Source of the DNA: Candidatus Pacearchaeota archaeon
GTDB lineage: Archaea > Nanobdellota > Nanobdellia > Pacearchaeales > GW2011-AR1
Length of the DNA stretch: 64,000 nucleotides
Direction of reading: 5' to 3'
Assembly: GCA_018304045.1 (NCBI GenBank)
Contig: JAGVWZ010000016.1
Span: forward strand, 18,063 to 82,062
Below are positions 27,956 through 52,761 of the stretch, in pieces. Position numbers and translations under genes: made by a program. Every line of letters begins with the position of its first letter. The first letter of the stretch is position 1. A model generated the notes under the pieces. It did not search any database. It was not told where the DNA came from and saw only the letters and a list, made by a program, of their open reading frames with translations.

Positions 27956-28299
27956 TACTTCCCAATATAATAATGTTTAAAAAGAAGTTTAATTAAATAT
28001 AATTATATCAACAGGTCTAGATCCAAATTTAGGATGTAAAACACTTTATGTTTATGGAAATCCTGATGATAAAACAAAACCTAATCCTTGTGTAGAATAT
28101 CTTACTTCCCCCCAGCAGGAGAGCTAGGTAATCAAGGAGTAGGAGATTTAAACTCACTTCTTCCAACTTTTAGAAAACTAATTAATGCAGGTTATAAACT
28201 TCATATAGGTAAACCCAACTCTAGCCCCTCTTGTTTAGATGAAAGAACTTTAAAATTTCTTTTAGAATTTACTCAAAGCAAATAGAAAAATTATAATTT

Positions 28300-28509
28300 T
28301 TATTCCCCACACATTAATTCAGAATATCCTTCAAATAATGGTGCAGGTCCAAGTTCTCTAGCAGGACTTTTTCTAGATGTCTTAACAGCAGGAACAGAAA
28401 TAATTCTTTTAGCTAATCCTCCACAATCACACTTATCTCTATCTCTTAATTCTCTTTGAATTCTTTCATACACCCCACATTTAGTACATTGATATTCATA
28501 GATTGGCAT
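28300..28509 (-). CDS. FmdB-family zinc-ribbon protein
   Basis: MPIYEYQCTKCG...CDCGG pattern (MPIYEY(R/Q)C..C start typical of FmdB-family regulatory zinc ribbons). Confidence 0.55.
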   Translation of the reverse strand: MPIYEYQCTKCGVYERIQRELRDRDKCDCGGLAKRIISVPAVKTSRKSPARELGPAPLFEGYSELMCGE

Positions 28510-28613
28510 GAATAATTAATTAAAAATCAATTTATAAAAATATAGGTAAAAAATTATATAATCTTATATCATAATACAATAATACTTATAAATCAATAAA
28601 ACATAGAATAAAA

Positions 28614-29135
28614 ATGCTTACTGAATTAGACACATCAGAAGGAAAAAGATATACACCAATTCCTAAACCAGATGTAGACGAATTTAACAGATTATATAAT
28701 GCTCTTCCACACCAAAATTTACCAAATCCAAGGAGAATTCTTGCATTAGATATGGGATCAAGACTCTATATTGAAATGTGTTTAGAAGGTATAAGACCGC
28801 ATATATATGAAAAAACAACAGAAATTTATGACTTATTTGTTAGAGATGAAACTCATTTAGAATTAGTAAGAAGCGGTTGTCCATGGGATCATGCCTCAAA
28901 TCAATTTACAAGCCTATCTGCAGAACAATACAAACAAACAAGAGACAAAGTCCTCGCAGGACTTGCATTAAGGGCAATTGAATTATTCACAGACTGGGAA
29001 GGAAAAATAAGCCCGCCAGGTAGGCGAGATGAACAACAAAACTATGTCCATGATGATAAAAGAAATCTAAGGGCTGACCTAAGAGATTACATAGCAAGAG
29101 CAGAACAATTATTACAACAACCTCAAGCAGCCTAA
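28614..29135 (+). CDS. hypothetical protein, paralog of 29182..29664
   Basis: Shared blocks RLYIEMCLEG...YDLFVRDETHLELVRSG / RIYIEWCLEQ...YEKFIADETIYELERST and C-terminal NLRADLRDYIARAEQLLQQPQAA / NLRCDLKPFLERMHQQTAA; GC-richer than neighbours. Confidence 0.45.
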   Translation: MLTELDTSEGKRYTPIPKPDVDEFNRLYNALPHQNLPNPRRILALDMGSRLYIEMCLEGIRPHIYEKTTEIYDLFVRDETHLELVRSGCPWDHASNQFTSLSAEQYKQTRDKVLAGLALRAIELFTDWEGKISPPGRRDEQQNYVHDDKRNLRADLRDYIARAEQLLQQPQAA

Positions 29136-29181
29136 GCTTAATAACAACAATATTTAAAAATAAACAAGAATTATATAAAAA

Positions 29182-29664
29182 ATGAGATTATATAATTGTC
29201 TTTTGCAACAATCCTGGTTTGAAGGATTGCCAGAAGCAAGAATTCCCTATGGCGATGAAGATAAAATTAGAGAATATTTTGATTCTTCTGAACTTTCAAA
29301 AGAAATATCCCCAGATGATTTTTTATTTGTTATAAGAAAAAGAATTTATATTGAATGGTGTTTAGAACAAGAATCAAAAGGCCTTAAAACTGGAGAAGGA
29401 AGGGATTTTGATTATAGGGTCTATGAAAAATTCATAGCAGATGAAACTATTTATGAATTAGAAAGATCAACTGCTCCTGAAGAAAGAAGTGATAGGGGAG
29501 TTTACTATGGGGCAAGACATAGAGTTTTAGAAGCATTTGTTCAAAATGCAGCACTTTTTTTAAAAGAAAATCAAGGTATTGATGGAAAGGATGGTAACCA
29601 TAGAAATTTAAGATGTGATCTAAAACCTTTCTTAGAAAGAATGCATCAACAAACCGCAGCATAA
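29182..29664 (+). CDS. hypothetical protein, paralog of 28614..29135
   Basis: See 28614..29135. Confidence 0.45.
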   Translation: MRLYNCLLQQSWFEGLPEARIPYGDEDKIREYFDSSELSKEISPDDFLFVIRKRIYIEWCLEQESKGLKTGEGRDFDYRVYEKFIADETIYELERSTAPEERSDRGVYYGARHRVLEAFVQNAALFLKENQGIDGKDGNHRNLRCDLKPFLERMHQQTAA

Positions 29665-29709
29665 AATATAATTAATTTACAATTAGCATCAATTTTTATC
29701 TACTTATCT

Positions 29710-29967
29710 TTAATATTCTATTTCAACCTTTGTTCCTTTAGGAACCGCTAGAACTAAAAGAGGAACTCCGCTACACAAAGGACAACCAGAACTATAATCT
29801 GCTTTTCCAGGCTTTGAACTTCCTATTAAAGGTTTTGCAGGAACACTTAAAACTCTTTCAGCAAGTCCGCCACAATCAATACATGATTGGGTTTTAGAAG
29901 CAGTGCTAGGTTCAAGTTGATCATATAATCTATCACATTGGTTACATCGATATTCATAGATTGGCAT
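29710..29967 (-). CDS. FmdB-family zinc-ribbon protein (second copy)
   Basis: MPIYEYRCNQCD...CIDCGG. Confidence 0.55.
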   Translation of the reverse strand: MPIYEYRCNQCDRLYDQLEPSTASKTQSCIDCGGLAERVLSVPAKPLIGSSKPGKADYSSGCPLCSGVPLLVLAVPKGTKVEIEY

Positions 29968-30315
29968 GAAAAAACAAAGAAATAGGTGCTTTAAAAATCT
30001 TTGGATTGAGTTTAGTAGTTGAACATTTGTCTAACAAGCTGAAATAAGTATAGCCATAATTTATCTGAGAAAGTCTTTTATGAAAAGATTTCCATACAGT
30101 TTAGATGAAAGAAGTTATAGATATTCTACAGAATCAATAAAACTACTGCTTTACTATAAAAACTAAACAAGTTCTTAGAAAAACGAATCTATGAGTTTTA
30201 AAATACTTTTGTAGATACTGATTATTATTTATTAAATATCTGCGAATAAACAATAACAATAGCAGATATAATCTCATACACAAATCCTTAAAAACCACTG
30301 AGAATTAAAATAAAA

Positions 30316-30858
30316 ATGCAAGAAGATGATTTTCATTCAGCAACAATCTATGTTTGGGAAAATGGTGCTTCTATAGATATTTCTAATATGCTTTCTGTTT
30401 TAGGTGGCAGATTAGCTCCAACAATGAGAGAATTAGAAATTAAGATGTTAATACAACCTTGTGTTCCTCTCCACATCACAAGAGATTTCAAAATTTATCA
30501 AGTAACAGGACAAATGAATGAAAAGAATCAACGATTAAAAACAACATTAAGTAATTCACTTGCATATATTGCAGATCACAGAAGTCCTGGTTTTTCAACT
30601 GTCCTTCTTGAAGAAAGATTAGCAAAGTTAGGTTTAGTATTGCCAGATCATGAGCTTAGATTTCTTCCAAGAACAGAACAAGGAGCAATGCCAAACTATG
30701 AAAAAGTTTCTCAAGTTGCAGCCTATCTTGAATTAAGGGGTCAACCAAGTTTAGAAGTTCTAGCAGTTCCAGGCACAAATATAGAAGATGAGCAACTTTA
30801 TGCTTCAAGAGAAATTGCTAGAAAATTAGGCATGCCTCTGGAAATAACATCTGCATAA
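30316..30858 (+). CDS. hypothetical protein
   Basis: ORF only; elevated GC. Confidence 0.35.
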   Translation: MQEDDFHSATIYVWENGASIDISNMLSVLGGRLAPTMRELEIKMLIQPCVPLHITRDFKIYQVTGQMNEKNQRLKTTLSNSLAYIADHRSPGFSTVLLEERLAKLGLVLPDHELRFLPRTEQGAMPNYEKVSQVAAYLELRGQPSLEVLAVPGTNIEDEQLYASREIARKLGMPLEITSA

Positions 30859-30863
30859 TAATT

Positions 30864-32372
30864 CTAAACTCTAAAATCAGTAGGCTTAAAACAATCAACA
30901 CAAACCTTCTTTTTTAATTTAAAATCAATTTTACTACATCTGCTGCACATTTCCTTGCCACAAATACCACATCTAAAAAAGTTAGCTTTGTTTGAAAACT
31001 TATTGCATATGGAACAATATTTTGCGCAATGATTGCAAATATGTCTTCCAGTTAAATTATCTAAACACATATCAGAAGAACAAGCATATTTATTGCATAT
31101 AGAACATCTTGCTCCACATTTAATACAAACACCTCTTCCACAAATATTGCAACTAAGCTTTTCACATTTTTCACAGGTTTCAGTTCCACATACACATCTA
31201 TTGCCACAACCTTCACAGTAAATATGATTTGAATGACAAATATTTACCTTAGCAAGTTTTTCCCCACAATTTTCACAATTTAAAGAACTTAATTCTTTTT
31301 TAACAGGATTAAAAACAAGATTGATATGTTTTACATGCTTATTCTTATTGAGAAGAGAAACATCAATATTATAAATAGGATAATAAATAATAGAAGTATT
31401 GATTAATTTATTATTTACATTTAAACTATGTTTGCTTTTTTCATCATTTATATAAACATCCCTTTCTTTTTCAACCCTATTCATATCATCAGAATTCTTT
31501 ATCTTTTCAATATTTGATTTTAATCTTTTTATTTTTTCTTCAGCTCCAACAACATCTTTTTCAATTCCCTTCCTAATTCTTTCTTTCAATGAAAGAATAT
31601 TTTCTTCATTTCTTTTTATCTCAGAATTAAACTCATCCATTTGATGAAGATAATGTGATTTTATTCTATTCATAGCACTTTCAAGTGAAAAATTAAGTTT
31701 GTCAACTATTTCCTTTGTTTTTTCATTAATATTTTCCTTTAACTTTTTCTTAGAAATAATATATTCTTCATTTATATCTTTAATATTAATCTCTTCTTTT
31801 TTACCTTCAACAGAATCAAAATCTTCAACATCAAATTTATCTAATATTTTTTTATCCTTGATATAAATAGAACTTGTTATCTGCTCCCTTTCATTTAAAT
31901 ACTGAAAGTTTGTAAGAAAAATAAATCTTATTATATAATCATAATTTATCTTATCATCAATACCTTTCAGAACATAGCCATTTAAATCAATTTCTTTTAA
32001 AACCAAATCTTTCAGATTAGGATTAAAATTAAGTCTCAATAATGTTGTCTGTCCTCTTTCTTCAAGGTAATTAGCTATTATTTTTAATAAAACACTTCCC
32101 CTTGCAACCAATTCAGAATTTTCATGTTTGTCATAGTCTTCTCTGTTAAAAACTAAAAAATAAGGTCCTTTTTTTCCAAAATCTTTTTCAAAATCCTCAG
32201 GAACATTATTAATAACTAAAACTTTGCCATCCCAATTAATTTTACATTTTAGATTTTTAAAAAAACCCTCTGCAAGTTTCATTATATTTTCTTCTTCTTT
32301 AGCCATTTTATGAATCAAGTATCTCCTCATTATATTTTTTTGAATTACTATAGGCTTCCATGCCTTCTTCAA
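30864..32372 (-). CDS. coiled-coil protein with C-terminal cluster of ~8 CxxC zinc-ribbon motifs; partner of SNF2 helicase
   Basis: C-terminal 130 aa contain ~14 CxxC/CxxxC pairs (CENCGEK...CEGCGNRC...CEKCEK...CNICGRG...CIKCGARC...CNHCAKYC...CGICGKEMCSRC...CVDC); central Lys/Glu coiled coil; overlaps the upstream helicase gene by 65 nt. Confidence 0.5.
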   Translation of the reverse strand: MKKAWKPIVIQKNIMRRYLIHKMAKEEENIMKLAEGFFKNLKCKINWDGKVLVINNVPEDFEKDFGKKGPYFLVFNREDYDKHENSELVARGSVLLKIIANYLEERGQTTLLRLNFNPNLKDLVLKEIDLNGYVLKGIDDKINYDYIIRFIFLTNFQYLNEREQITSSIYIKDKKILDKFDVEDFDSVEGKKEEINIKDINEEYIISKKKLKENINEKTKEIVDKLNFSLESAMNRIKSHYLHQMDEFNSEIKRNEENILSLKERIRKGIEKDVVGAEEKIKRLKSNIEKIKNSDDMNRVEKERDVYINDEKSKHSLNVNNKLINTSIIYYPIYNIDVSLLNKNKHVKHINLVFNPVKKELSSLNCENCGEKLAKVNICHSNHIYCEGCGNRCVCGTETCEKCEKLSCNICGRGVCIKCGARCSICNKYACSSDMCLDNLTGRHICNHCAKYCSICNKFSNKANFFRCGICGKEMCSRCSKIDFKLKKKVCVDCFKPTDFRV

Positions 32373-34086
32373 TCATTTGAGCTATTTCCTCAACACCTTT
32401 TGAAAATATTTCTAGATTATTTTTTGAGTCTATAAATTTATTCATAAGCATTTCTTCAATCTTATTATAACCATTTTCGCTTTTACCATCTAAACCAAGA
32501 TTAAATAAAATTATTGGAAGTTCACCAATAACAAGTCCAATACAGCACATTTTATTTATTATTAAATCAACAACATGTTCTTCCATTGTTCCCTTAGTTG
32601 CAAGGCTAAAAATATTCATGTCGTGATTCTGCCCAATTCTATCAATTCTTCCGATTCTTTGTTCAACAGACATTGGATTCCATGGTAAATCATAGTTAAT
32701 AATATTATGGCAGAATTGAAAATTTAATCCTTCACATCCTGTTTCAGTTGAAATCAATATATTTGCACTTTCTTTAAACTCTTTTATTATAGCTGTCTTA
32801 CCTTCCCTATCAATTCCACCCATGAATTCTAATACCTTAAGATTATAGGGTTTTAGTTTCTCAGAAATATATCTTAAAGTAGTAGGATGTTTAGTATAAA
32901 TAAGAATCTTCTGATTTCTGTCTTCCTTTAACAACTCATCAACAATTTCAATTAATTTTTCAATTTTTGAATCTTTTTTCAAATTTTTATATTTTTCAAC
33001 TATTCCAAGTGCAAATTGCTTTGTATCATTATGATACTTTTCATTATTAGAAATATTAGTCAAAGTCTCAATTGCAGATATTGAAGAACTAGTTATCTTA
33101 GGAAGTATAGCATAAATAGCCAGTTTTCCATTAATCTTATCACCATTAACTCCAAAATATCTCGTTTTCAACAACTCACAAATATCCTCATATATCTCTG
33201 TTTCTTCCTTAGATAGTTCAACACTGACAATCCTAGGAATCCTTTTCATATAGCTCACAGTTGTTTCAGATCTCTTTCTTCTGACCATAACTTCATCTAA
33301 TTTTCTTTTCAAGTCCCTAGGATTTATAGGAATTCTTTTATTACCCCGATCTAAAAACTGTCCCTTAAACTGGTTTACAGTGCCAAGATGCCCTCTTTTT
33401 AATAAATGTAGAAGATTATACAGCTCAATTAAATCATTTTGAAAAGGAGTTGCAGTAAGAATCAAAAATCTTTTTTTCTGTATTTTATCAACAAACTTCC
33501 ATCTTGTTGTTCGCCTATCTTTTAATTTATGAGCCTCATCAACAATTAATAAATCCCAGGAAATATTATGGCATTGTTCATGTTTAAATTTTTTATTCTC
33601 TCTGTCATAGGACTTGACTCTATCAATAGAAGCTATAGCAAGATTATACTTTTCCCAATCATTTTCATTTTCTATTATTCCAAAATCAATTTCAAACTTT
33701 TCTTTTAGTTCAGCAACCCACTGATCAACTAAAGATGGAGGAGTAAGTATTAATACTCTTTTTACAAATCCTCTTTCAATACATTCCTTTAATATTAAAC
33801 CCGTTGTTATTGTTTTTCCAAGTCCAACCTCATCCGCAAGCAATGCATTACCATTGAATTCTCTCAATATTCTTAAAGCACCTTCTGGCTGATGAGGCAG
33901 TTCATAGACAAGATTTTTCTTTATAGAAGGATAAGTAATTAATTCATTTATTTCATTTTCCCTAGATATTTCATTAGCTTCAATTTTAAGATTTAAAAGT
34001 TCCTCTGAATCAAAATTAATCTTCTTTATATTCCCAAATAGGTCTTCATAATCTGAAAAACTTTCATTTATTATAATATCTTCCAT
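32308..34086 (-). CDS. SNF2/SWI2-family helicase core (592 aa)
   Basis: Motif I DEVGLGKT, motif II LLIVDEAHKLK, motif III LILTATPFQN, helicase-C block ETGCEGLNFQ...NYDLPWNP...QRIGRIDRIGQ. Confidence 0.85.
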   Translation of the reverse strand: MEDIIINESFSDYEDLFGNIKKINFDSEELLNLKIEANEISRENEINELITYPSIKKNLVYELPHQPEGALRILREFNGNALLADEVGLGKTITTGLILKECIERGFVKRVLILTPPSLVDQWVAELKEKFEIDFGIIENENDWEKYNLAIASIDRVKSYDRENKKFKHEQCHNISWDLLIVDEAHKLKDRRTTRWKFVDKIQKKRFLILTATPFQNDLIELYNLLHLLKRGHLGTVNQFKGQFLDRGNKRIPINPRDLKRKLDEVMVRRKRSETTVSYMKRIPRIVSVELSKEETEIYEDICELLKTRYFGVNGDKINGKLAIYAILPKITSSSISAIETLTNISNNEKYHNDTKQFALGIVEKYKNLKKDSKIEKLIEIVDELLKEDRNQKILIYTKHPTTLRYISEKLKPYNLKVLEFMGGIDREGKTAIIKEFKESANILISTETGCEGLNFQFCHNIINYDLPWNPMSVEQRIGRIDRIGQNHDMNIFSLATKGTMEEHVVDLIINKMCCIGLVIGELPIILFNLGLDGKSENGYNKIEEMLMNKFIDSKNNLEIFSKGVEEIAQMIEEGMEAYSNSKKYNEEILDS

Positions 34087-34213
34087 AAATCACCTTTAAA
34101 TAGTATTTCATAATGAGAATTAGACTATTTAATTTTAATTATTATATGAGCTGTCAAATTAACGTCAGGTGATTTAAAGCAAAGTTTTTAAATTAGTCAA
34201 AGTTAGATTTAAA

Positions 34214-34687
34214 ATGCTAAAAAAAGGTTTAGGGCTTATAGGTCTTGTAGTTACAATTTTAATATTCTTTAGTGGAGGATTGTTTAGTTTTTACTTTTTT
34301 GATATTAAGACAAGTATTCCATTACTTAATGCACTTATTATAACAATAAAACCGTTTATACTCCCAATTGCTATTTTTTGTGTTATACCTTTAATTGTGT
34401 TTATAATCTGCGTATTGAGAGCAAAACCCAATACTAATATAGATGAGATATTCTTTTGGAAAATATTGAATTTAATTACTCATCTTATATTATTAATTTT
34501 AATATTATTTATTATTGGTTGGTTTTGGGCATTGATGATGATAGGATTAATGATAATTTCAAATAATATTAATATTTCATTAATAATCCCCTGCATCATA
34601 GTAATTGTTTCTATATTTGTAATAGATGCATTAGTACAAAAACATTTTAAGATTAGATATTATAATATACTTCATTGGCTTAAATAG
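34214..34687 (+). CDS. integral membrane protein
   Basis: Four to five TM helices. Confidence 0.35.
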   Translation: MLKKGLGLIGLVVTILIFFSGGLFSFYFFDIKTSIPLLNALIITIKPFILPIAIFCVIPLIVFIICVLRAKPNTNIDEIFFWKILNLITHLILLILILFIIGWFWALMMIGLMIISNNINISLIIPCIIVIVSIFVIDALVQKHFKIRYYNILHWLK

Positions 34688-35549
34688 AAGCCATTTTAAT
34701 TAATCCCAACCATCTATTTTCTCCTAAATCTAAATCTTGACCTGCAAGAGAACAAGGAACTTGTTTAGTTGTGGTATGTTCTTCTATAAAATTATGTTGT
34801 ATGGTTAGACCTGCCATGATTATTGGAGCAGACCAAAGGGCTTTCAATCCTCTAAAATCATCAACTCTATCTTTAATCTTCATAAAAACAGTTTCTATTT
34901 TATAATTATGAATATGAGTTTTATGATAATTTTGTATTTTATGCTCTACTTCATAACCACCACCAAAACCTAATTTATTATTGTAAAACATTTTTTTAAA
35001 TGCCTTAGGATAGAAAACTCCTGCATCTGTTTGAATAAACTTGGGTTTTCCTTTGCTTATTGCTTTCTCTAAGAATATTTTTGCTTGATTAGGATTTGTA
35101 GCTGTGCTATAATGTATTCCAGTAATCATTCTAGTATTCCAGTCAACACAACACCAATATTTATCTAAATGCCCACTTCTATTGATTACTGTTTCATCAG
35201 CATAAAATGAATTACCTAGATTATAACCTAATTTTTCAACAAAGTTATAAACCTTTAGAGCATACTTGTAAACCCAGTTTAAAATAGTTTGATGGCTTAC
35301 TTTAAAATTGAAATGTCTTTTTAATTGGTTTCTCATTTTTCTGCTTGAAAGGTTTGATAAGTACATATCAATGGACATAGCAATAGTTCTATTATCAGTT
35401 CTCATCCTATAAAAGCCATTGTCAGCAGTAAAGTATTTCTTACAATCAGAACAATAGTATTTCTGAATCTTACCTCTATTTTCAGTTTTTCTGTATCCTT
35501 GCTTTGAAAAGTTGATACTTCCACAATGCTTACATTTTATTTCTTGTTT
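34680..35549 (-). CDS. IS6-like DDE transposase with N-terminal zinc finger
   Basis: N-terminal CKHCGS...CSDCKKYF zinc finger; DDE candidates ADETVIN / IQTDAGVFYPKAFK / NFIEEHTTTK resemble the IS6/IS26 DETY...TDKAPAY...IEQ spacing; probable start at MKQEIKCKHCG. Confidence 0.5.
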   Translation of the reverse strand, partial: KQEIKCKHCGSINFSKQGYRKTENRGKIQKYYCSDCKKYFTADNGFYRMRTDNRTIAMSIDMYLSNLSSRKMRNQLKRHFNFKVSHQTILNWVYKYALKVYNFVEKLGYNLGNSFYADETVINRSGHLDKYWCCVDWNTRMITGIHYSTATNPNQAKIFLEKAISKGKPKFIQTDAGVFYPKAFKKMFYNNKLGFGGGYEVEHKIQNYHKTHIHNYKIETVFMKIKDRVDDFRGLKALWSAPIIMAGLTIQHNFIEEHTTTKQVPCSLAGQDLDLGENRWLGLIKMASI

Positions 35550-35680
35550 CATAATATATTCATGTACCTGAACTATATAAATGTTTCGGTACATGAAAAA
35601 GATATTTAAATACAAAAAAGCTTATAAACTGATAAAAAGAAGAGAAGAAAAGGTAATTGTGATATAACCAAGATTTAAAA

Positions 35681-35944
35681 ATGACTTTTAATAATAACAC
35701 TATGGATGAAAATTTATCTCATGATTTAGAAAGATTTCAAGAAGATATTTTATATTTTGAAAATAAAAAAGAGGAATTAAGAGCAGAATTCTTAAATAAA
35801 TTTGTTGCAATAAAAAATAAGAGGATTATAGATTCTGGTAACTCCATAGAAGAGCTAAGGAACCGATTAGAAAACAATAATCAAGACCCTGCAAGAATAA
35901 TAATAGAATTTGTACCAGAAGAAGAAACTATAATGATTTTATAA
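35681..35944 (+). CDS. hypothetical coiled-coil protein
   Basis: ORF only; adjacent to the aspartic protease gene with a 1-bp gap. Confidence 0.3.
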   Translation: MTFNNNTMDENLSHDLERFQEDILYFENKKEELRAEFLNKFVAIKNKRIIDSGNSIEELRNRLENNNQDPARIIIEFVPEEETIMIL

Positions 35945-36382
35945 ATGACAAAAATTCCTTTGTTTATGGGTAAGAGTCTTGGTTTTGATAGATATATGGT
36001 TTCAATGTCTGTTAAATATTGTAATTTACCCTGTTTTTTTACTAAAGCTATTGTGGATACTGGATGCCCTTATACAATTATAAGCGAGAGTACATTAAAA
36101 AAGACAAGGATACCTTATAATGATAAACCATTTAAATGCCAAGTTCAATTAGGAAATATTCCTTTAGAATTAAAAGAACTAGGTATTTGTGAACTTCAAT
36201 TTAGAGATGAAAATGGGAATATTATAAAATTTAAACAAGAAATTTATGTTGGAATTCCTATAATGAAGGGGTATCTCGCCCAAGAACTTCCAAGTTTTAT
36301 CGGGAAAGATTTAATGGATACAAATTTTATATCGGTAATAAATAAAAAAGATGGTTCTAGTCATTTATATTTAGATGATTAA
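35945..36382 (+). CDS. retropepsin-like (clan AA) aspartic peptidase
   Basis: Active-site motif AIVDTGCPYTIIS (D-T-G) in a ~145-aa protein, as in archaeal AF_0612-type aspartic proteases. Confidence 0.5.
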   Translation: MTKIPLFMGKSLGFDRYMVSMSVKYCNLPCFFTKAIVDTGCPYTIISESTLKKTRIPYNDKPFKCQVQLGNIPLELKELGICELQFRDENGNIIKFKQEIYVGIPIMKGYLAQELPSFIGKDLMDTNFISVINKKDGSSHLYLDD

Positions 36383-42430: not shown

Positions 42431-43549
42431 ATGGTTTTAAAAGAGCTGATTAAAAACCACTCTGGAAAGATACAAGCATCTCTATCAACGATTATAAAGA
42501 TAATACTTATTTTTTCTATTTTCTATGCCACATACTATCATCTTTGGCATATTTTGTTTGCCAATATTTTTTTATTGTTCTTATTATTTACACCATATTT
42601 TCTAAGAAAAAAATATGAAGTTCATATTCCAAAGGAATTCGAGTTTATTTTTCTTGCATTCATAATAATCTCGTTTTTTCTAGGTGATATAAGGGGAACA
42701 ATTATACAGATTTTTTTTGGAACTGCTATAGCTTTTATTGGATTTACAATAATGCTGATATTGTTTTCAAATAGCAAATTTAAGGCCAATTATCTATTAG
42801 TTATGCTATTTTCATTCAGTTTTTCTGTAACTTTTGGACTTATTGCAGAAATGATAAAATATTATCTAAAAACTTATTTTAATGAAGGAATAGTAAATCT
42901 TAGTGACTATACTTTTGCCATGCAAAATCTTACTTTTGTTGCCATAGGAGCTTTAACTGCATCAGTATTTGGTTTTATTTACATGAAAGGATTTAGAAAC
43001 AAGCTAATGAAAGAATGGGTTGGCAAATTTAAGAAAAGCAATCCAAATTTATTTATTCAAAGAACTGAATCACCTGAAGAAATATTAAAATTAATTAAAA
43101 AAGGTGAGAATGAAAAATTAGAATTCAAATCAACATTAAGGATGAATCTTCATACAGGAGAAAAAGATAGAAAAGTTGAAAATTCAGTTCTTAAAACAAT
43201 TGTTGCATTTTTAAATTCTGAAGGAGGTTGTTTATTAATTGGAATTTCTGATAATAGTGAAATAATTGGTATAGAAAAAGATGGATTTGTTAATAATGAT
43301 ATGTTTAATAGGCATTTTACAAATCTAATAAAAGAAAAAGTTGGAAATGAGTTTTTACCATTTATGAATTTTGAAATAGTATCATTAGATGGAAAAAATA
43401 TCCTTAAGGTAGATTTAGGAAAAAGTGATAAGCCAGTCTTTCTAAAAAATAGCAATGAGGAATTTTACATAAGAGTTGGAGCATCATCAATTCTGTTGAA
43501 TGGAAGTGAATTAATTGAGTATATCAAGAATAAATTTCATATAAGATAA
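42431..43549 (+). CDS. membrane-anchored Schlafen/AlbA_2-domain protein
   Basis: N-terminal ~200 aa with five or six TM helices; C-terminal EKLEFKSTLRMN...VLKTIVAFLNSEGGCLLIGISDNSEIIGIEKD matches the AlbA_2 (divergent AAA / Schlafen) signature. Confidence 0.6.
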   Translation: MVLKELIKNHSGKIQASLSTIIKIILIFSIFYATYYHLWHILFANIFLLFLLFTPYFLRKKYEVHIPKEFEFIFLAFIIISFFLGDIRGTIIQIFFGTAIAFIGFTIMLILFSNSKFKANYLLVMLFSFSFSVTFGLIAEMIKYYLKTYFNEGIVNLSDYTFAMQNLTFVAIGALTASVFGFIYMKGFRNKLMKEWVGKFKKSNPNLFIQRTESPEEILKLIKKGENEKLEFKSTLRMNLHTGEKDRKVENSVLKTIVAFLNSEGGCLLIGISDNSEIIGIEKDGFVNNDMFNRHFTNLIKEKVGNEFLPFMNFEIVSLDGKNILKVDLGKSDKPVFLKNSNEEFYIRVGASSILLNGSELIEYIKNKFHIR

Positions 43550-47231: not shown

Positions 47232-48497
47232 ATGTACAAAGATAGATACATTAGAAGAAAAGGGGAATTTTTGGATAATAAGGATATTAATCCTAAAAAT
47301 AGGAAGGTTACTGAAAAGTTCTTTGAATTTGAAGAATACAAACTAAAGAGGAAGCAAGGATTAGCAGAGGTTGATGAAAAATCCTACAAAACACTTTATT
47401 TCTATGTTGGTAGATTGATTAATTTGAATAATTGGTTTAAGAATAAAGATTGGTCTAAATTAACTGAAGAAGAAATAAAAAAATTAATTGATGATTTAGA
47501 AGACGGAAAAATAACAACTCATAAAGGGACAAGATTTACAGACAGGAGTTTGTATTATCAAATGATAAAAGGAAAATTATTTGATTTAGTTGGTAAGAGT
47601 TTTATTGCAACACAAATCCTAAAAGAGTTCTCAATAAAAGGAAGAGAGTTTAGAGATGAAGTAAGATATATTGAAGAAGAGTCTTTTAGAAAAATTGTTG
47701 ATTGTGCTCCAAAGTCAGAACATAAGTGTTTGATGTGGTTAGCTTTTGATATAGGTGAGAATATTGGAACTCTCTTAGAATTGACTAGAGAAGATTTCCA
47801 AAGACAAATCAATCCAGACACTAATGAACCAGAATATTTAGTTATGCTAACTAAAGATAGGATTAAGAGGAGTAGAACTGCAAGAGGTGAAACTACCAAT
47901 CATCAGGAAACTGTAAAATATTTAGATATAATTCTTAGAAACCTAAAACCAGCATCACCAAAAACTTCCACTAGCCGGTATCGCAGGTCACTTAAAACTT
48001 TAAATGAACTACATCCAGAAAACAAACTATTCAAGTTTGGCCACAAAGCATCTGTAAAGTTTTTTGACAGAGCAGTTGTAAGAGCAGGAGTAAAATGTTT
48101 ACCTGGTGGTCAAAAAGTTACATGGAAAGATTTGAGAAGTTCTATGGCTTGTAATTTATTGAGAAAAGAGTGGTCCAGAGACGAGGTAAATGCTAGACTT
48201 GGACATAAGCCTTCTAGTCGTATCATAGATTCTTACATCAACTATCTTTCATTAGATAGAAGAAAACCACAAAAGAAAGTTTATGAAAGCAGTTTAAAAA
48301 AGATTGAAGCTGATTTTGAAAAACAAAAAGAAGTTTCAAAATTACAGGGATTAAAAATTGAAAATCTAAGAGAGGATATAAAACAAATCAAAACAGACTT
48401 TAAATTAGCAATGGAAAAACAAAGAAAACAATTAATTGAAATTGTTATGGAATTAAAGAAGGGACAAGTAAAACCTATTGTTGTTAAGAGTCATTAA
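47232..48497 (+). CDS. tyrosine recombinase/integrase
   Basis: C-terminal catalytic region with R...LGHKPSSRIIDSYINY (H-x-x-R, Y); preceded by GC-rich palindrome gggcccacgcggccc at 47124..47138. Confidence 0.65.
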   Translation: MYKDRYIRRKGEFLDNKDINPKNRKVTEKFFEFEEYKLKRKQGLAEVDEKSYKTLYFYVGRLINLNNWFKNKDWSKLTEEEIKKLIDDLEDGKITTHKGTRFTDRSLYYQMIKGKLFDLVGKSFIATQILKEFSIKGREFRDEVRYIEEESFRKIVDCAPKSEHKCLMWLAFDIGENIGTLLELTREDFQRQINPDTNEPEYLVMLTKDRIKRSRTARGETTNHQETVKYLDIILRNLKPASPKTSTSRYRRSLKTLNELHPENKLFKFGHKASVKFFDRAVVRAGVKCLPGGQKVTWKDLRSSMACNLLRKEWSRDEVNARLGHKPSSRIIDSYINYLSLDRRKPQKKVYESSLKKIEADFEKQKEVSKLQGLKIENLREDIKQIKTDFKLAMEKQRKQLIEIVMELKKGQVKPIVVKSH

Positions 48498-49066
48498 AGT
48501 CTTCTGGGCATTTCAAATAATTTTATCATCTTCTCATCTAACTTCTTTTTAAAATCGTCAGGTCTACCTTTTTGTTTAATAATATAATAGATAACATAAA
48601 ACTTTATTGCAGAGATAAAAATATTTTCTCCAGCATTAAGTTCACATATAACTTCTCTTGCTTCAGGATTATCATATATTTCATTTAAGAATTTCTTTTC
48701 TCTTTGATTTAATTTAATATGCAATTCATCAAATGAATCAAATATAAATTTTATTTTAATTTTATGAACAGGGCTTCTTTGAGTATATTTTGTTCCATTG
48801 AAGTTTGTTTTATTTATTGCATCTGTTCCTTCTTCAATATAATCTGCTTCTTTGAGTTTATCAAATACTTTTGTCACAGCTCCAATACTTTTTACATCTT
48901 TTTTAGTATTTGGATATAATTTTCTCGTAACTTCTCCATGTGTAACAAACTTTCTAAAATATTCTAAAGCGACTTTGTTTTCTCCTATCCCTTTTATCAA
49001 TGGGGGTCTTACAGCAGGATAAACTATTATTGGTTCATCATCTAAAGTTTTTTTTCCTTTCTTCAT
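48494..49066 (-). CDS. hypothetical protein (mobile-element gene)
   Basis: ORF only. Confidence 0.3.
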   Translation of the reverse strand: MKKGKKTLDDEPIIVYPAVRPPLIKGIGENKVALEYFRKFVTHGEVTRKLYPNTKKDVKSIGAVTKVFDKLKEADYIEEGTDAINKTNFNGTKYTQRSPVHKIKIKFIFDSFDELHIKLNQREKKFLNEIYDNPEAREVICELNAGENIFISAIKFYVIYYIIKQKGRPDDFKKKLDEKMIKLFEMPRRL

Positions 49067-49115
49067 TTTAGGGTACCATTAACAGGTATATTAAGTATTT
49101 ATACTTTATTATAAA

Positions 49116-49259
49116 ATGGAACTACAAAAACCAATAAAATGTGAATGCAAGAAGTGCGGCTGGTGCTGGTATTCTACACTTGGCAGAAAACCAAAAGTCT
49201 GCGTCAGGTGCAAGAGGTATGACTGGCAGGAGGAGAAAGATGAGCGAAAACAGCAATGA
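49116..49259 (+). CDS. 47-aa zinc-ribbon protein (MELQKPIKCECKKCGWCWYSTLGRKPKVCVRCKRYDW...)
   Basis: CxCxxC...CxxC; alternative frame to the listed ORF 49141..49395, whose N-terminus (MNARSAAGAG...) looks non-genuine. Confidence 0.35.
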   Translation: MELQKPIKCECKKCGWCWYSTLGRKPKVCVRCKRYDWQEEKDERKQQ

Positions 49260-49521
49260 TTCTATTCTCCTCCAAAAAGAGTCCTTAGACAGAGTCTTTG
49301 ATATAATTGATGAAATGCAGGGCGATATTATTGGTTTAGAGTCAAAATGGTTAAAAGAGGTGCAAGAGGATGACAGAGAACAACAGAGTGATTGATATGA
49401 ACCTATCTGAACCTAATAGCCAATACTTCTCACCACTAGATGATATAATATATGGTGGTCTTATTTTTCTTATATTCTTCCGGAAGAAAAGATTGATTGA
49501 AAGGAGGTTCCGAACTACAAA

Positions 49522-52500
49522 ATGATACCACCTATTCAACTTAGAAAACCCCAATTTAAGTTTATACTGTTGGGTAGGTGGAATCAATATAAAGATAGTA
49601 ATAAAACAATCCATATTTTTGAACCAAAAACGAAGGAAGAATTTGATTCTATAAAAGAGCAGGGTTTTGCCTCCATTGGAAAAGCTCCTATTGAATCTGG
49701 CTGGACTAAGAATTCAGACTATATTTATGCAGACCCAAAACTACTTAGCCATATCTCTGCAGGATATAATTATGGTGTAAAATGTGGACCTGGAAGATTA
49801 AGTATCCTTGATGTTGATGACACATCCATTATCCCAGAGTTAGATAAGATGGTTCCAGAAACCCTAACCATTGAAACAGGAAGTGGAAAACAGCATAGGT
49901 ATTTCCTAGTTCCTGTAGGAACTCCTAAAATAATTTTAGAAAAGAATAAAGTCCATTATGGAGAACTGCAAGGTCCTGGTTCTCAATGTGTTGGGGCAGG
50001 TTCAAAACATCCAATTGGCGGAAAAGAGTATAATGTTATAAAAGATGTGGATATTACAGAACTTTCACAGGAGATTATAGATAAAATTAAAGATAACTAC
50101 ACAGACTTTAATAATGACCCTATAAAAGTCATTTCTCCAGATTGGAATCAGTATAATAAGACAAATATAAGTGACTTATTATCAATAACCACTTTAGTTA
50201 ATTTAGGTAGTATGAAGAAAACTGGTGGAGAGTATTTTGGTTCCCATCCAGTTCATGGCTCACAGACAGGTATGAATTTTTTTATTAATCCATCTAAAAA
50301 TCTCTGGCATTGTTTCAGGTGTGATTCTGGAGGAGATTCTTTATCCCTCTTAGCAGTCAATGAAGGTATTTGCGGATGTAGCGACTTTTCAAGAAGTGGA
50401 AAGAAACTAAGGGGAGAAGATTTTATCAAAGTGAAAAAAATTGTTGAAGAGAAATATAACATCAAGATTCCTCAAAAAGAACTAGAATTAACTCCTTTAA
50501 AGAATATCAAAGTAGAGTTAGGTAGGCGTGTTAAAACAATCGTTTCTGTTTTAGATATGACTCCGGGAGTTAGTATGGTTGTAGGGTATGAAGCAACTTG
50601 TCCACAATGCCTTAGAAATACAATTTTATACCACAAAAATCCTACCTCTTGCTCAATAGCTTTTGCAGAAGAATTAAAAAATGAAAATAAAGCCGGTTGT
50701 CTTGATAGTGCTAATAAACCTATAAAAGTAGATATCAAACCAATACATGAAACAGGTTATTTATTGAGTGTATTTGACCCAAAAGATACTGGAAATAATA
50801 TGCAAATAACTCCAATTTTTATAAAGAATGATTTAATACCTAAAGATTACAAATCTAAAAAAGATTGGGAAGGAGATTTATTAATAAAACCCCTTATTTT
50901 AGAAGGTAAAATCGGAGTTTTTCAATCTTTTAAAAAAAAGTTTGAGGATTGGTTTATTCATGTGGAGAATTATGAGTTTGAGGTGAAAAAAGAAGATGTT
51001 AACTACACACTTTTAAGAAAGTTTGGAGATATCGAGAGGGGTAAGAATTTTTTTGCAGAAAATTTCGCTCCAAGAATCTATGATAGAACACTAGCTAAAA
51101 AGATGTACACATTAACATTACTTTCACCAATAAAAATAAATTTACCTAATGATGAAATTGATTATGGAATAATAAATACGATAGATATGGGTGATGCTGG
51201 ACAAAGCAAAACAAAGCTTAGTAAAGAAACCTTAAAATGTGCAAAGGGGACCAACTCTAAATTTATCAGTGTTGAGAATTCTACAAATAGGGGATTACTA
51301 GGTTCAGTAGTAAAAAGTCAGAATTCTGAATCATGGACAGTTAAGGTTGGAGAGATACCTAAAGCAAGTAATGGATTAGTTTGTTTAGATGGTTATTCAA
51401 AGTTGTCACCTGACGACATGACTCAATTTAGAGGGATTTTAGAGGAGAAAGAGTTTCAGATTACAAAAGCAGGTGGAGTGCAAAAAGAATGTCCTGTTAG
51501 AATTATAATGTTAGGAAATATCGTAAAACCAATAGGGCAATACTCCACCAAACATCAAGCAAGTTTTAATATGGGTGCAACAGAGTCTGATGAAACAAAT
51601 AAATTTTCGGGTCCAGACAGAAGAAGAATTCATCATGTGTCTATTGTTGCTGATTCTGATACCAATGCTAGGGATATTGATATGCATTTATCAAAAAAAT
51701 ATGATAAAGAAAAAATAAGAGAATTGGAAAATTATTGGTCTAATTTAAGAGCTTTCTCTTGGACAAGAAAAGCTGGAGATTTTATCTGGGAAAGTGGTAT
51801 TATAGAATATGTTCAAACAAAAATAGACAGTCTTAGAAAGAAATATCCCAGGTTCTCAATGCAATATGGTGTCTTATCTAAAGGAGGGTCAAAGATGTTT
51901 ACAATCCAGTTACCCACAGTAGCAATGTTACATGAATCAATTGATGACAGTCACAAAGTCGTTATCAGGAAGGACCATGTTGATTGGTTATACCATATGT
52001 ACTTAGAGGAATTTAATGAGTTAGGATTGGGGGCTGAAAATGAAGTATATAGTATTCATAAATTGCATGCTATAGCTATTAGTCGTAATTGTTCAAAGGA
52101 AGTAAAGGAGATATTATTACTTTTACAGAGATATGGGGGAAATCAAACTGCAATTGAAAATGCAGGAGTTGTAAGTCGTATGCACATTAGTCGAATGTTG
52201 AGCAATCCAATAGAGTATGAACTAAAACACATCAGTGGTATAAAACCTCATTGGTATAAACTTAATGAAGGTTCTGGCGAACCAAAAGAAACAAGAGAGG
52301 GTATTAAATTTTTCCCTGATGACGATTTACCATCTATAACAAAAAGGGGCACAGGTTCTTTTACAGATTTTGGTAAAATCTTAATTCAAGAAATATTAAG
52401 GTTAAAAAATGAGGAACTTCAAAAGGATAAGATAATAGGAATCCCCGATTTAGAAGATGTTACATCTGTTACAGGCAGGAATGAAAGTTTAGATAACTAT

Positions 52501-52761
52501 GCAGTTGGCGGCGTTACATCTGTTACAGGTGTTACACCAAAAGAGGATATATCAAATAAAAATATAGAAAAAGTAGGAGAAGTAATACAAAGTAATACTA
52601 GTTCTATTGAAATTAAGAAAAAGAATATACTTGATATTAAAAATAGTGTAACAGATGTAACGAGTGTAACAAAAGATATATTGAATCTCAATAATACTAT
52701 AGGGGATAGTGTAATAGATGTAACAGAAGAACCTGAGTATGAAACGGAGGATTTAACATGA
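49522..52761 (+). CDS. replication protein: primase-polymerase-like N-terminal region + SF3 (D5-type) helicase, C-terminal VTSVTG repeats
   Basis: N-terminal SILDVDDTS / HCFRCDSGGDS (prim-pol and zinc-binding-like); Walker A-like MGDAGQSKT; Walker B VCLDGYSKL; 1079 aa. Confidence 0.6.
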   Translation: MIPPIQLRKPQFKFILLGRWNQYKDSNKTIHIFEPKTKEEFDSIKEQGFASIGKAPIESGWTKNSDYIYADPKLLSHISAGYNYGVKCGPGRLSILDVDDTSIIPELDKMVPETLTIETGSGKQHRYFLVPVGTPKIILEKNKVHYGELQGPGSQCVGAGSKHPIGGKEYNVIKDVDITELSQEIIDKIKDNYTDFNNDPIKVISPDWNQYNKTNISDLLSITTLVNLGSMKKTGGEYFGSHPVHGSQTGMNFFINPSKNLWHCFRCDSGGDSLSLLAVNEGICGCSDFSRSGKKLRGEDFIKVKKIVEEKYNIKIPQKELELTPLKNIKVELGRRVKTIVSVLDMTPGVSMVVGYEATCPQCLRNTILYHKNPTSCSIAFAEELKNENKAGCLDSANKPIKVDIKPIHETGYLLSVFDPKDTGNNMQITPIFIKNDLIPKDYKSKKDWEGDLLIKPLILEGKIGVFQSFKKKFEDWFIHVENYEFEVKKEDVNYTLLRKFGDIERGKNFFAENFAPRIYDRTLAKKMYTLTLLSPIKINLPNDEIDYGIINTIDMGDAGQSKTKLSKETLKCAKGTNSKFISVENSTNRGLLGSVVKSQNSESWTVKVGEIPKASNGLVCLDGYSKLSPDDMTQFRGILEEKEFQITKAGGVQKECPVRIIMLGNIVKPIGQYSTKHQASFNMGATESDETNKFSGPDRRRIHHVSIVADSDTNARDIDMHLSKKYDKEKIRELENYWSNLRAFSWTRKAGDFIWESGIIEYVQTKIDSLRKKYPRFSMQYGVLSKGGSKMFTIQLPTVAMLHESIDDSHKVVIRKDHVDWLYHMYLEEFNELGLGAENEVYSIHKLHAIAISRNCSKEVKEILLLLQRYGGNQTAIENAGVVSRMHISRMLSNPIEYELKHISGIKPHWYKLNEGSGEPKETREGIKFFPDDDLPSITKRGTGSFTDFGKILIQEILRLKNEELQKDKIIGIPDLEDVTSVTGRNESLDNYAVGGVTSVTGVTPKEDISNKNIEKVGEVIQSNTSSIEIKKKNILDIKNSVTDVTSVTKDILNLNNTIGDSVIDVTEEPEYETEDLT
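52459..52728. repeat. iteron-like repeats GTTACATCTGTTACAGG (x2 direct) and GTAACAGATGTAAC (x2 inverted) inside the 3' end of the rep gene
   Basis: Copies at 52459..52475, 52513..52529 (+) and 52647..52660, 52714..52727 (reverse complement); also encodes the VTSVTG peptide repeats. Confidence 0.55.

Follow-up and report, generated by a model that had tools for sequence, protein, structure and literature searches.

An archaeal, ladder-bearing variant of the uncharacterised SNF2-YqhG gene pair

Snf2 motors move along duplex DNA and do work only when accessory domains tether them to a substrate, as in RapA, Mot1, Rad54, and the chromatin remodellers. These motors are understood mainly from eukaryotic chromatin, and the prokaryotic ones besides RapA are poorly characterised. 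Here we describe two adjacent genes, one for a compact Snf2 motor and one for a partner protein with a cysteine-rich tail, from the chromosome of Candidatus Pacearchaeota, a DPANN archaeon with a small genome (assembly GCA_018304045.1, contig JAGVWZ010000016.1, positions 18,063 to 82,062). We call this stretch of 64,000 nucleotides the window, and its coordinates are counted from its first letter. The pair is an archaeal, ladder-bearing variant of a known but uncharacterised pairing of SNF2 and YqhG proteins and does not correspond to any recognised defence system.

In some bacteria, a Snf2 motor is encoded beside a separate zinc-binding partner: SWIM zinc-finger proteins form pairs with SNF2 helicases in this way. 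The concept is the same at the window, but the partner there comes from another family, and a Pfam scan did not detect a SWIM domain in it. The closer relatives are pairs that involve YqhG, which has no known function. In Bacillus subtilis, yqhG is flanked by yqhH and sinI (PMC6123443). The yqhH gene encodes a poorly characterised Swi2/Snf2 translocase, “HepA”, which is about 30% identical to HepA from Escherichia coli (PMC7385302), and a yqhH knockout of B. thuringiensis is sensitive to ultraviolet light (UV) (PMC10054049). E. coli HepA, or RapA, is like the window motor in being a prokaryotic Snf2 motor that needs a targeting or regulatory module. One study describes how RapA's N-terminal domain autoinhibits the ATPase and how RNA polymerase relieves this and activates the enzyme (PMC8501970). 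Another relative, SSO1653 (SsoRad54) from Sulfolobus solfataricus, is a compact archaeal Snf2 core like the window motor. It has a proposed role with RadA, whose strand exchange it stimulates according to another study (PMC2677860), and it has no documented YqhG-like partner.

The upstream gene of the pair encodes 592 amino acids. These match SNF2-rel_dom (8e-34, 117.5 bits) and Helicase_C (5e-21, 75.4 bits) from Pfam, both above the cutoffs, and also ResIII. Snf2 motifs I–VI are intact (including DEVGLGKT, DEAH, TATPFQN, and QRIGRIDRIGQ). With both lobes and these motifs in place, the protein is a Snf2 family ATPase, in agreement with an earlier note on this DNA, which had described a compact 592-amino-acid SNF2 protein with all helicase motifs. 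Besides the two RecA-like lobes, there is a leader of about 60 amino acids and a helical tail of about 70, which makes it a bare motor. Its closest solved structures are RapA (1.8e-37, 132 bits) and then SSO1653 (1z63; 9e-31, 110 bits); the motors of ISWI, INO80, CHD1, and SWR1 rank below these (1e-27 to 1e-25 against the PDB). It falls short of every NCBIfam equivalog cutoff that we compared, with 204 bits against 576 for RapA (NF003426), 242 against 610 and 232 against 950 for DrmD (NF038317 and NF038318), 186 against 500 for DpdE, and 65 against 1500 for ZorD. The alignment to the RapA model begins at model position 120, and RapA's first ~120 residues have no counterpart in the window protein. 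At the window, the product of a separate gene would take the role of that N-terminal domain.

The SNF2 protein aligns end to end with the SNF2s that adjoin distant relatives of the partner (32–35% identity, 287–349 bits). These scores are much higher than with an SNF2_assoc-type SNF2 of a related genome (just 137 bits) or with RapA (132 bits), so a dedicated SNF2 subfamily accompanies the partner family. In one related DPANN genome, a second SNF2 of 1075 amino acids, with a bacterial SNF2_assoc N-terminal domain, lies about 4 kb from the pair (locus L003, 13089–16316). The two SNF2s of that genome have a parallel in B. subtilis, with its SNF2 paralogues YqhH and YwqA.

Both open reading frames (ORFs) of the window pair are real genes. 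The mechanical list of ORFs begins the partner at the most upstream TTG (30864..32372 on the minus strand, 502 amino acids), and the 65-nt overlap of the two genes that the earlier note reported appears to be an artefact of that start. A 480-amino-acid protein at NCBI, “hypothetical protein J4218_03015” from a metagenome-assembled genome of Candidatus Pacearchaeota archaeon (lineage Archaea; Nanobdellati), is 100% identical to the partner; an alignment of 25 homologues begins at the methionine encoded by the ATG at 32306; and the junction of the genes reads TAA-A-ATG. For these reasons, the partner most likely starts at this ATG and has 480 amino acids, and the two genes would therefore abut with a 1-nt spacer. 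Among relatives, 40 of 51 loci have an estimated spacing of the SNF2 and partner genes between −60 and +60 nt, and gene callers give overlaps of 8–20 nt. The junction suggests a single operon with coupled translation.

The two genes occur together far beyond chance. In the first six diverse contigs with partner homologues, a gene for an SNF2 of 592–610 amino acids was always found just upstream and on the same strand (6/6). These six contexts differ otherwise, and their flanking genes are of housekeeping types (thermosome, aminoacyl-tRNA synthetases, RuBisCO, ribosomal protein S10). A scan of genomes, with one genome per species, yielded 59 partner loci, and the genome names assign all but one of these to Nanoarchaeota, Pacearchaeota, Woesearchaeota, or unclassified archaeal metagenome-assembled genomes. 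Upstream DNA was available for 55 of these loci, and 51 of the 55 have a same-strand SNF2 ortholog upstream (57–90% identity by tblastn). In six of the 51, inserts of 0.7–2.5 kb separate the SNF2 gene from the partner.

The pairing also holds when one starts from SNF2. We searched 43 metagenomic loci with partner profiles, and a partner lies downstream of SNF2 in all 21 testable loci with orthologous SNF2s (64–92% identity) and in 18 of 19 loci with SNF2s that are only 31–39% identical. The earlier note had suggested looking for orthologous SNF2 genes that have no partner beside them, and the partner was there each time. Its idea of a genuine two-gene unit is borne out from both directions. 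When we clustered the ORFs of the 59 genome loci, only the partner (59 loci) and SNF2 (51 loci) recurred. The next cluster was a shadow ORF that lies within SNF2 itself, thermosome was found in 6 loci, and the clustering revealed no third conserved gene or effector. This is strictly a two-gene module, whose genes are co-inherited through hundreds of lineages.

At two of the genome loci, L042 and L046, a GatD-like gene occupies SNF2's place upstream of the partner. We considered that a 294-amino-acid ORF upstream of the L046 partner might be a decayed SNF2, but we rejected this on comparison.

What is the partner? Neither it nor its close homologues have a match in scans of Pfam, NCBIfam, or PADLOC. 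We found 41 full-length homologues, and with 26 homologues as input, AlphaFold 2 (AF2) gave a confident model, with a mean pLDDT (predicted local distance difference test) of 87.5. The model predicts an N-terminal globular domain, an antiparallel helical hairpin rich in lysine and glutamate, a long β-hairpin, and short β-ribbons over the cysteine-rich tail. This agrees with the long Lys/Glu coiled coil of the earlier note, which had also proposed predicting the structure of the tail. The globular domain holds a conserved KGSxLLK and a long β-hairpin with a near-invariant tip, FQYLNE[KR]EQ; F128, N138, and E141 are invariant in the alignment of homologues. The second β-hairpin carries a conserved DEKxKHSLN..NKLINTxIIYYP with near-invariant columns, and this motif was the search pattern in the scan of genomes. 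A separate AF2 model of the N-domain has a pLDDT of 81.9. Comparing the models to the PDB with Foldseek gave no relative (best E 0.15 for the whole partner and 0.26 for the N-domain model, with template modelling (TM) scores below 0.2), and searching the PDB with a sequence profile gave insignificant RING or coiled-coil noise alone. Foldseek against viral structures gave just local matches to cysteine-rich ladders with low TM scores.

The partner belongs to a large family. When 1.84 billion representatives were searched exhaustively with a profile, 1142 clusters (at 50% identity) had E ≤ 1e-3, and 192 of these had E ≤ 1e-30. They are hypothetical proteins wherever the source names them. One cluster comes from a bacterium of the Armatimonadota, and the matches include longer proteins, of 547–1051 amino acids, with many more cysteine repeats.

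Distant members of this family lead to YqhG. The profile of the DPANN partners (alignment A1) matches the proteins P0145 (E 9e-61) and P0146 (E 3e-59). These score 36.2 and 27.4 bits with PF11079 (“Bacterial protein YqhG of unknown function”, 258 positions), for which the gathering score is 25. Four other proteins (P0166, P0188, P0187, and P0158) have colinear, sub-threshold PF11079 matches in the globular domain. Furthermore, hhalign aligned A1 to A2, an alignment of eight distant sequences cut before the cysteine region, with a probability of 99.9 (E 3e-31, 305 columns). From these results together, we regard the partner as a remote member of the YqhG superfamily, by homology at a distance and not by a direct match to PF11079. 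Word-indexed searches with the N-terminal part of P0145 and with A2 added 2 and 10 unannotated relatives, with no genuine Bacillus YqhG among them.

Wherever the context of the distant relatives is readable, they lie just downstream of an SNF2 gene (L068–L073, a Rhodovastum plasmid, a Haloferax megaplasmid, and L076). The partner of the window likewise adjoins a compact SNF2 gene, as yqhG does. Since the partner is remotely a YqhG and yqhG adjoins the SNF2 gene yqhH, we take the window pair to be the archaeal, ladder-bearing counterpart of the bacterial yqhH-yqhG pair. The part of the partner that is not cysteine-rich is homologous to proteins that pass PF11079, and SNF2 would be the counterpart of YqhH. 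The window pair differs from that of B. subtilis in its archaeal host, in the lack of a PF11079 match, and in its putative zinc ladder of about 130 amino acids. The view of the earlier note that this is not a known housekeeping pairing is not supported: the B. subtilis pair is known, though uncharacterised.

The ladder itself has 27 cysteines, which form 11 CxxC pairs and one CxC (the earlier note was right about the cysteine-rich tail, but its count of about 14 CxxC was too high). In the AF2 model, the ladder is a run of short two-stranded ribbons. Most of its cysteine columns and H361 are invariant across the family, and the 27 cysteines together with H361 would suffice for about seven zinc sites. 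The number of CxxC varies from 2 to 35 (median 11) in the 154 members of the family that have 380 or more amino acids. In P0182 (885 amino acids), the ladder includes eleven identical tandem copies of a 30-amino-acid unit, CNSCKKQFCQTDRTRCAECDLEFCRNDAGE, so the repeats of this ladder would have expanded very recently. The Alphaproteobacterial-type members have one small ribbon. The partners that adjoin the 31–39%-identical SNF2s have only about 260 amino acids and end just after the coiled coil, with no ladder. This is about the length of the Pfam YqhG model, and these short marine partners do not reach PF11079 at E ≤ 0.01. The ladder is therefore a lineage-variable appendage that is dispensable in some branches, and the core that the partners share consists of the globular domain and the coiled-coil hairpin.

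SNF2 is about as constrained as the thermosome, which ranks among the most conserved proteins of archaea, and the partner evolves roughly twice as fast. In loci L001 and L011, the identity to the window is 79% for the thermosome, 76% for SNF2, and 47% for the partner; in L003, these values are 63%, 66%, and 36%. The identities of SNF2 and the partner co-vary across loci (Spearman 0.86), as joint vertical descent would predict. The GC content of the pair (0.20–0.33) is inside the range of the window, which is AT-rich (GC about 0.25–0.34) and is archaeal, since it encodes a thermosome. We found no copy of the pair or of its relatives on viral contigs.

The ancestral gene order appears in L001: SNF2, the partner, two Zn_ribbon_8 genes, the thermosome, and a CBS protein. 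At the window, this conserved core seems to be surrounded by strain-specific insertions (Table 1): three ORFs on the plus strand, a membrane ORF, and a transposase are missing from all related loci. The three plus-strand ORFs sit between genes that adjoin in relatives and look like a strain-specific insertion of unknown nature. The first two of them are paralogous (26% identity, E 7e-9); they are the two ORFs of the duplicated module that the earlier note placed beside the pair. Its “elevated GC” fares less well: at 0.26–0.37, the GC content of the module is only mildly above that of the pair. The IS6-like transposase that it mentioned is indeed there, although its NCBIfam match is under the cutoff.

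Table 1. Features of the gene pair and its surroundings in the window
Feature	Position	Strand	Evidence
SNF2-family ATPase gene, 592 amino acids	32308..34086	-	ORF, Pfam domains
Partner gene, 480 amino acids; putative YqhG-superfamily member with C-terminal zinc ladder	30864..32306	-	homologues, profile search
Gene junction TAA-A-ATG (SNF2 stop, 1-nt spacer, partner start)	32304..32310	-	read in sequence
GGTGA, Shine-Dalgarno-like motif, 3 nt 5' of the SNF2 ATG (34086)	34090..34094	-	read in sequence; function putative
Globular α/β domain, partner residues 1–175	31782..32306	-	AF2 models; no PDB fold match
K/E-rich antiparallel coiled-coil hairpin, partner residues 179–292	31431..31772	-	AF2 helices 179–245 and 252–292 (pLDDT ~90); composition
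Long β-hairpin, partner residues 295–333	31308..31424	-	AF2 strands 295–319 and 325–333
Putative zinc ladder, partner residues 344–472	30891..31277	-	cysteine count, invariant cysteine columns
Three ORFs (173, 160, and 180 amino acids)	28088-30858	+	no family match; missing from all related loci
Two conserved small Zn_ribbon_8 genes, interleaved with the plus-strand ORFs	28300-28509, 29710-29967	-	family match
IS6/IS240-like DDE transposase with N-terminal zinc finger	34680..35615		Pfam DDE_Tnp_IS240 49 bits; NCBIfam IS6 90 bits (cutoff 125)

We also noticed several other features in the neighbourhood of the pair and elsewhere in the window. The interval 34214–35615 holds a multi-pass membrane ORF of 157 amino acids, followed by the transposase; neither is found in the loci of relatives. 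Just beyond, at 35681–36382, are two abutting small ORFs (87 and 145 amino acids), possibly a small two-gene cassette. The 145-amino-acid ORF has a retropepsin-like DTG motif, with weak matches to gag-asp_proteas (22.7 bits, below the cutoff) and to PADLOC's PDC-M08B (E 2e-4). At 42431–43549 is a 372-amino-acid protein with a Schlafen/AlbA_2 domain (1.3e-22). The region 47232–52761 includes a 421-amino-acid ORF with a sub-threshold Phage_integrase match and then, at 49522–52761, a protein of 1079 amino acids in which an MCM-like ATPase region (MCM5/7, ~1e-10) is accompanied by a zinc-binding region of the DnaG-primase type. The local GC is raised (0.31–0.36), and the region looks like an integrated mobile element or the replication module of a provirus. 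We rejected this 1079-amino-acid ORF as a second SNF2; it is MCM-like instead. In two loci of unrelated lineages, a RadC-like gene (UPF0758_N and RadC) lies directly downstream of the partner (L006, 7531–8190; L071, 3970–4680). L006 is from DPANN, and L071 has a GC content of about 60%.

What would the pair do? We lean towards the view that the two proteins are subunits, motor plus adaptor, of a housekeeping machine that remodels complexes on DNA. In this proposal, the operon encodes a bare Snf2 motor, of the prokaryotic group nearest RapA and SSO1653, and a partner that would aim and anchor it. Because the motor is almost devoid of accessory sequence and is encoded with the partner, with which it is probably translationally coupled, we propose that the two form a stoichiometric complex; that the genes abut suggests binding in a fixed ratio. 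The conserved core of the partner would dock on the motor and either regulate it or target it to a DNA-bound protein or a DNA structure. The coiled coil may be a spacer or a dimerisation element, and the zinc ladder may be an extensible arm that binds nucleic acid or protein. The most likely job of such a machine would be to clear or recycle stalled complexes on DNA (RNA polymerase, for example, or another roadblock) or to assist in repair. A housekeeping role seems the most likely because the motor evolves slowly and is kept in very small genomes. Our proposal also fits the UV phenotype of the Bacillus relative.

Several points weigh against this proposal. Four loci (L042, L046, L047, and L053) keep the partner without an SNF2 in their 2.4–5 kb of upstream flank (the partner is at about position 2500 in L047 and at about 5000 in the other three). 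The scan of genomes relied on fixed patterns, so genomes of the clade that lack the pair go uncounted. The window partner, like all 26 DPANN members, has no PF11079 match even at E ≤ 1, so its link to YqhG is transitive. Literature searches turned up no paper that ties YqhG to SNF2 and none that mentions PF11079, and a search on SNF2 in DPANN returned nothing relevant. We know of no experiment on the partner protein from any member of the family; the physical complex, the binding of zinc, and the target are what we infer. And some distant members are in quite different company. Those on the Rhodovastum plasmid and the Haloferax megaplasmid are surrounded by genes for toxin-antitoxin systems, insertion sequences (IS), RepB, and a restriction endonuclease, and another adjoins ParB_N and transposase genes. 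In L076 (1–9197), the SNF2 gene (518 amino acids) and the partner gene (585 amino acids) are followed by an abutting gene for a Mrr_cat/NA-iREase1 nuclease (220 amino acids) and then by PD-(D/E)xK and HNH ORFs; upstream are a fragment of UvrD and another SNF2 of this locus, which is fused to NOV_C. These contexts could reflect an ancestral or alternative role in conflict.

Might the pair itself be a two-gene system against viruses or plasmids, with SNF2 scanning DNA and the ladder partner sensing or blocking what is foreign? Those plasmid and nuclease contexts would fit, and so would the IS element and the strain-specific insertions around the window pair. The Mrr-type nuclease in the apparent operon of L076 is reminiscent of the Mrr domain of ZorD, and the models that rank best for the SNF2 protein in PADLOC and NCBIfam are named BrxHI (from BREX), DrmD (from DISARM), DpdE, and ZorD (from Zorya). 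However, these matches are confined to the helicase core and lie far under the cutoffs. What the four defence proteins share with the window motor is the Snf2 core; they differ in having 870–1300 amino acids with extra domains and in their obligatory partner genes, which we did not find at the window. In PADLOC scans of flanking ORFs within about 12 kb, which covered some but not all of these ORFs, there was no DrmA, DrmB, DrmC, or methyltransferase, no BrxA/B/C, PglX, or PglZ (SNF2 itself is only a partial BrxH match), and no Zor gene, and SNF2 lacks the nuclease domain of ZorD. The partner and its relatives match no PADLOC defence model. Also, no effector or other third gene is kept across the 59 loci, the genes that flank the pair in relatives are of housekeeping types, the divergence of SNF2 is thermosome-like and correlated with that of the partner, and the IS element and inserted ORFs are missing from the loci of all relatives. 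Thus, the Pfam and PADLOC searches with both proteins that the earlier note had recommended gave core models for SNF2, nothing for the partner, and no recognised defence system. We consider a defence function to be unlikely overall; it is disfavoured for this clade and plausible for distant branches that have nucleases or are on plasmids. The other function that the earlier note had raised, in DNA transactions, is the natural reading of a compact SNF2 core. We also observed weak, colinear matches of the coiled coils of P0188 (201–305) and P0146 (189–292) to the extreme C-terminus of DrmD (NF038317, E 6e-5 and 0.03; PDLC02621, E 0.015). We treat homology of the partner's coiled coil to DrmD as unproven, given two weak NCBIfam matches and one weak PADLOC match; they could be coiled-coil noise, or a YqhG-like tail could be fused in DrmD.

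Other roles on DNA can be imagined for the pair. It might be an accessory of recombination and repair like Rad54, with the motor remodelling RadA filaments or DNA joints and the partner acting as a mediator. This would account for the similarity of SNF2 to SSO1653, for the UV sensitivity of the yqhH knockout, and for the RadC-like neighbours. However, the 59 loci show no linkage of the pair to radA or to any other recombination gene, the match to RapA is slightly better than that to SSO1653, and RadC adjacency is limited to two loci; we think that this role is rather unlikely. Remodelling of archaeal histones or other nucleoid proteins would be in keeping with the general activity of Snf2 and with the PDB matches to ISWI, INO80, CHD1, and SWR1. 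But these matches are weaker than those to RapA and SSO1653, there are no histone-reading domains, and homologous pairs are present in bacteria without histones (Armatimonadota, Alphaproteobacteria, Bacillus), so we rate a chromatin remodeller as very unlikely. Finally, the absence of a direct Pfam match for the partner might hint at a spurious ORF, or at unrelated genes that are adjacent by chance. We give this next to no weight: it is refuted by the pairing in both directions, the 1142 homologous clusters, the confident prediction of the fold, and the invariant residues.

To return to the housekeeping machine that we favour, a bolder version of it is possible, and we offer it tentatively. 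A bare Snf2 motor with an adaptor of the YqhG fold may be an ancient two-subunit remodeller, previously unrecognised, of both Bacteria (Bacillus, Armatimonadota, Alphaproteobacteria) and Archaea (DPANN, haloarchaea). It might be near-essential in the genome-reduced Pacearchaeota and Woesearchaeota, for example as a functional analogue, in archaea, of RapA or Mfd that clears or recycles stalled RNA polymerase. The adaptor would then combine a globular fold that has no solved relative with an expandable ladder that sets its reach or its valency.

As a caution for annotation, matches to the core domains alone are no basis for assigning a compact archaeal SNF2 to DISARM, BREX, or Zorya. The partner defines a large protein family, the module has strictly two genes, and the partner protein has no detectable fold match in the PDB. 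That SNF2 is conserved like the thermosome in very small archaeal genomes points to an important cellular role, and the distant link to yqhH-yqhG opens this role to the genetics of B. subtilis.

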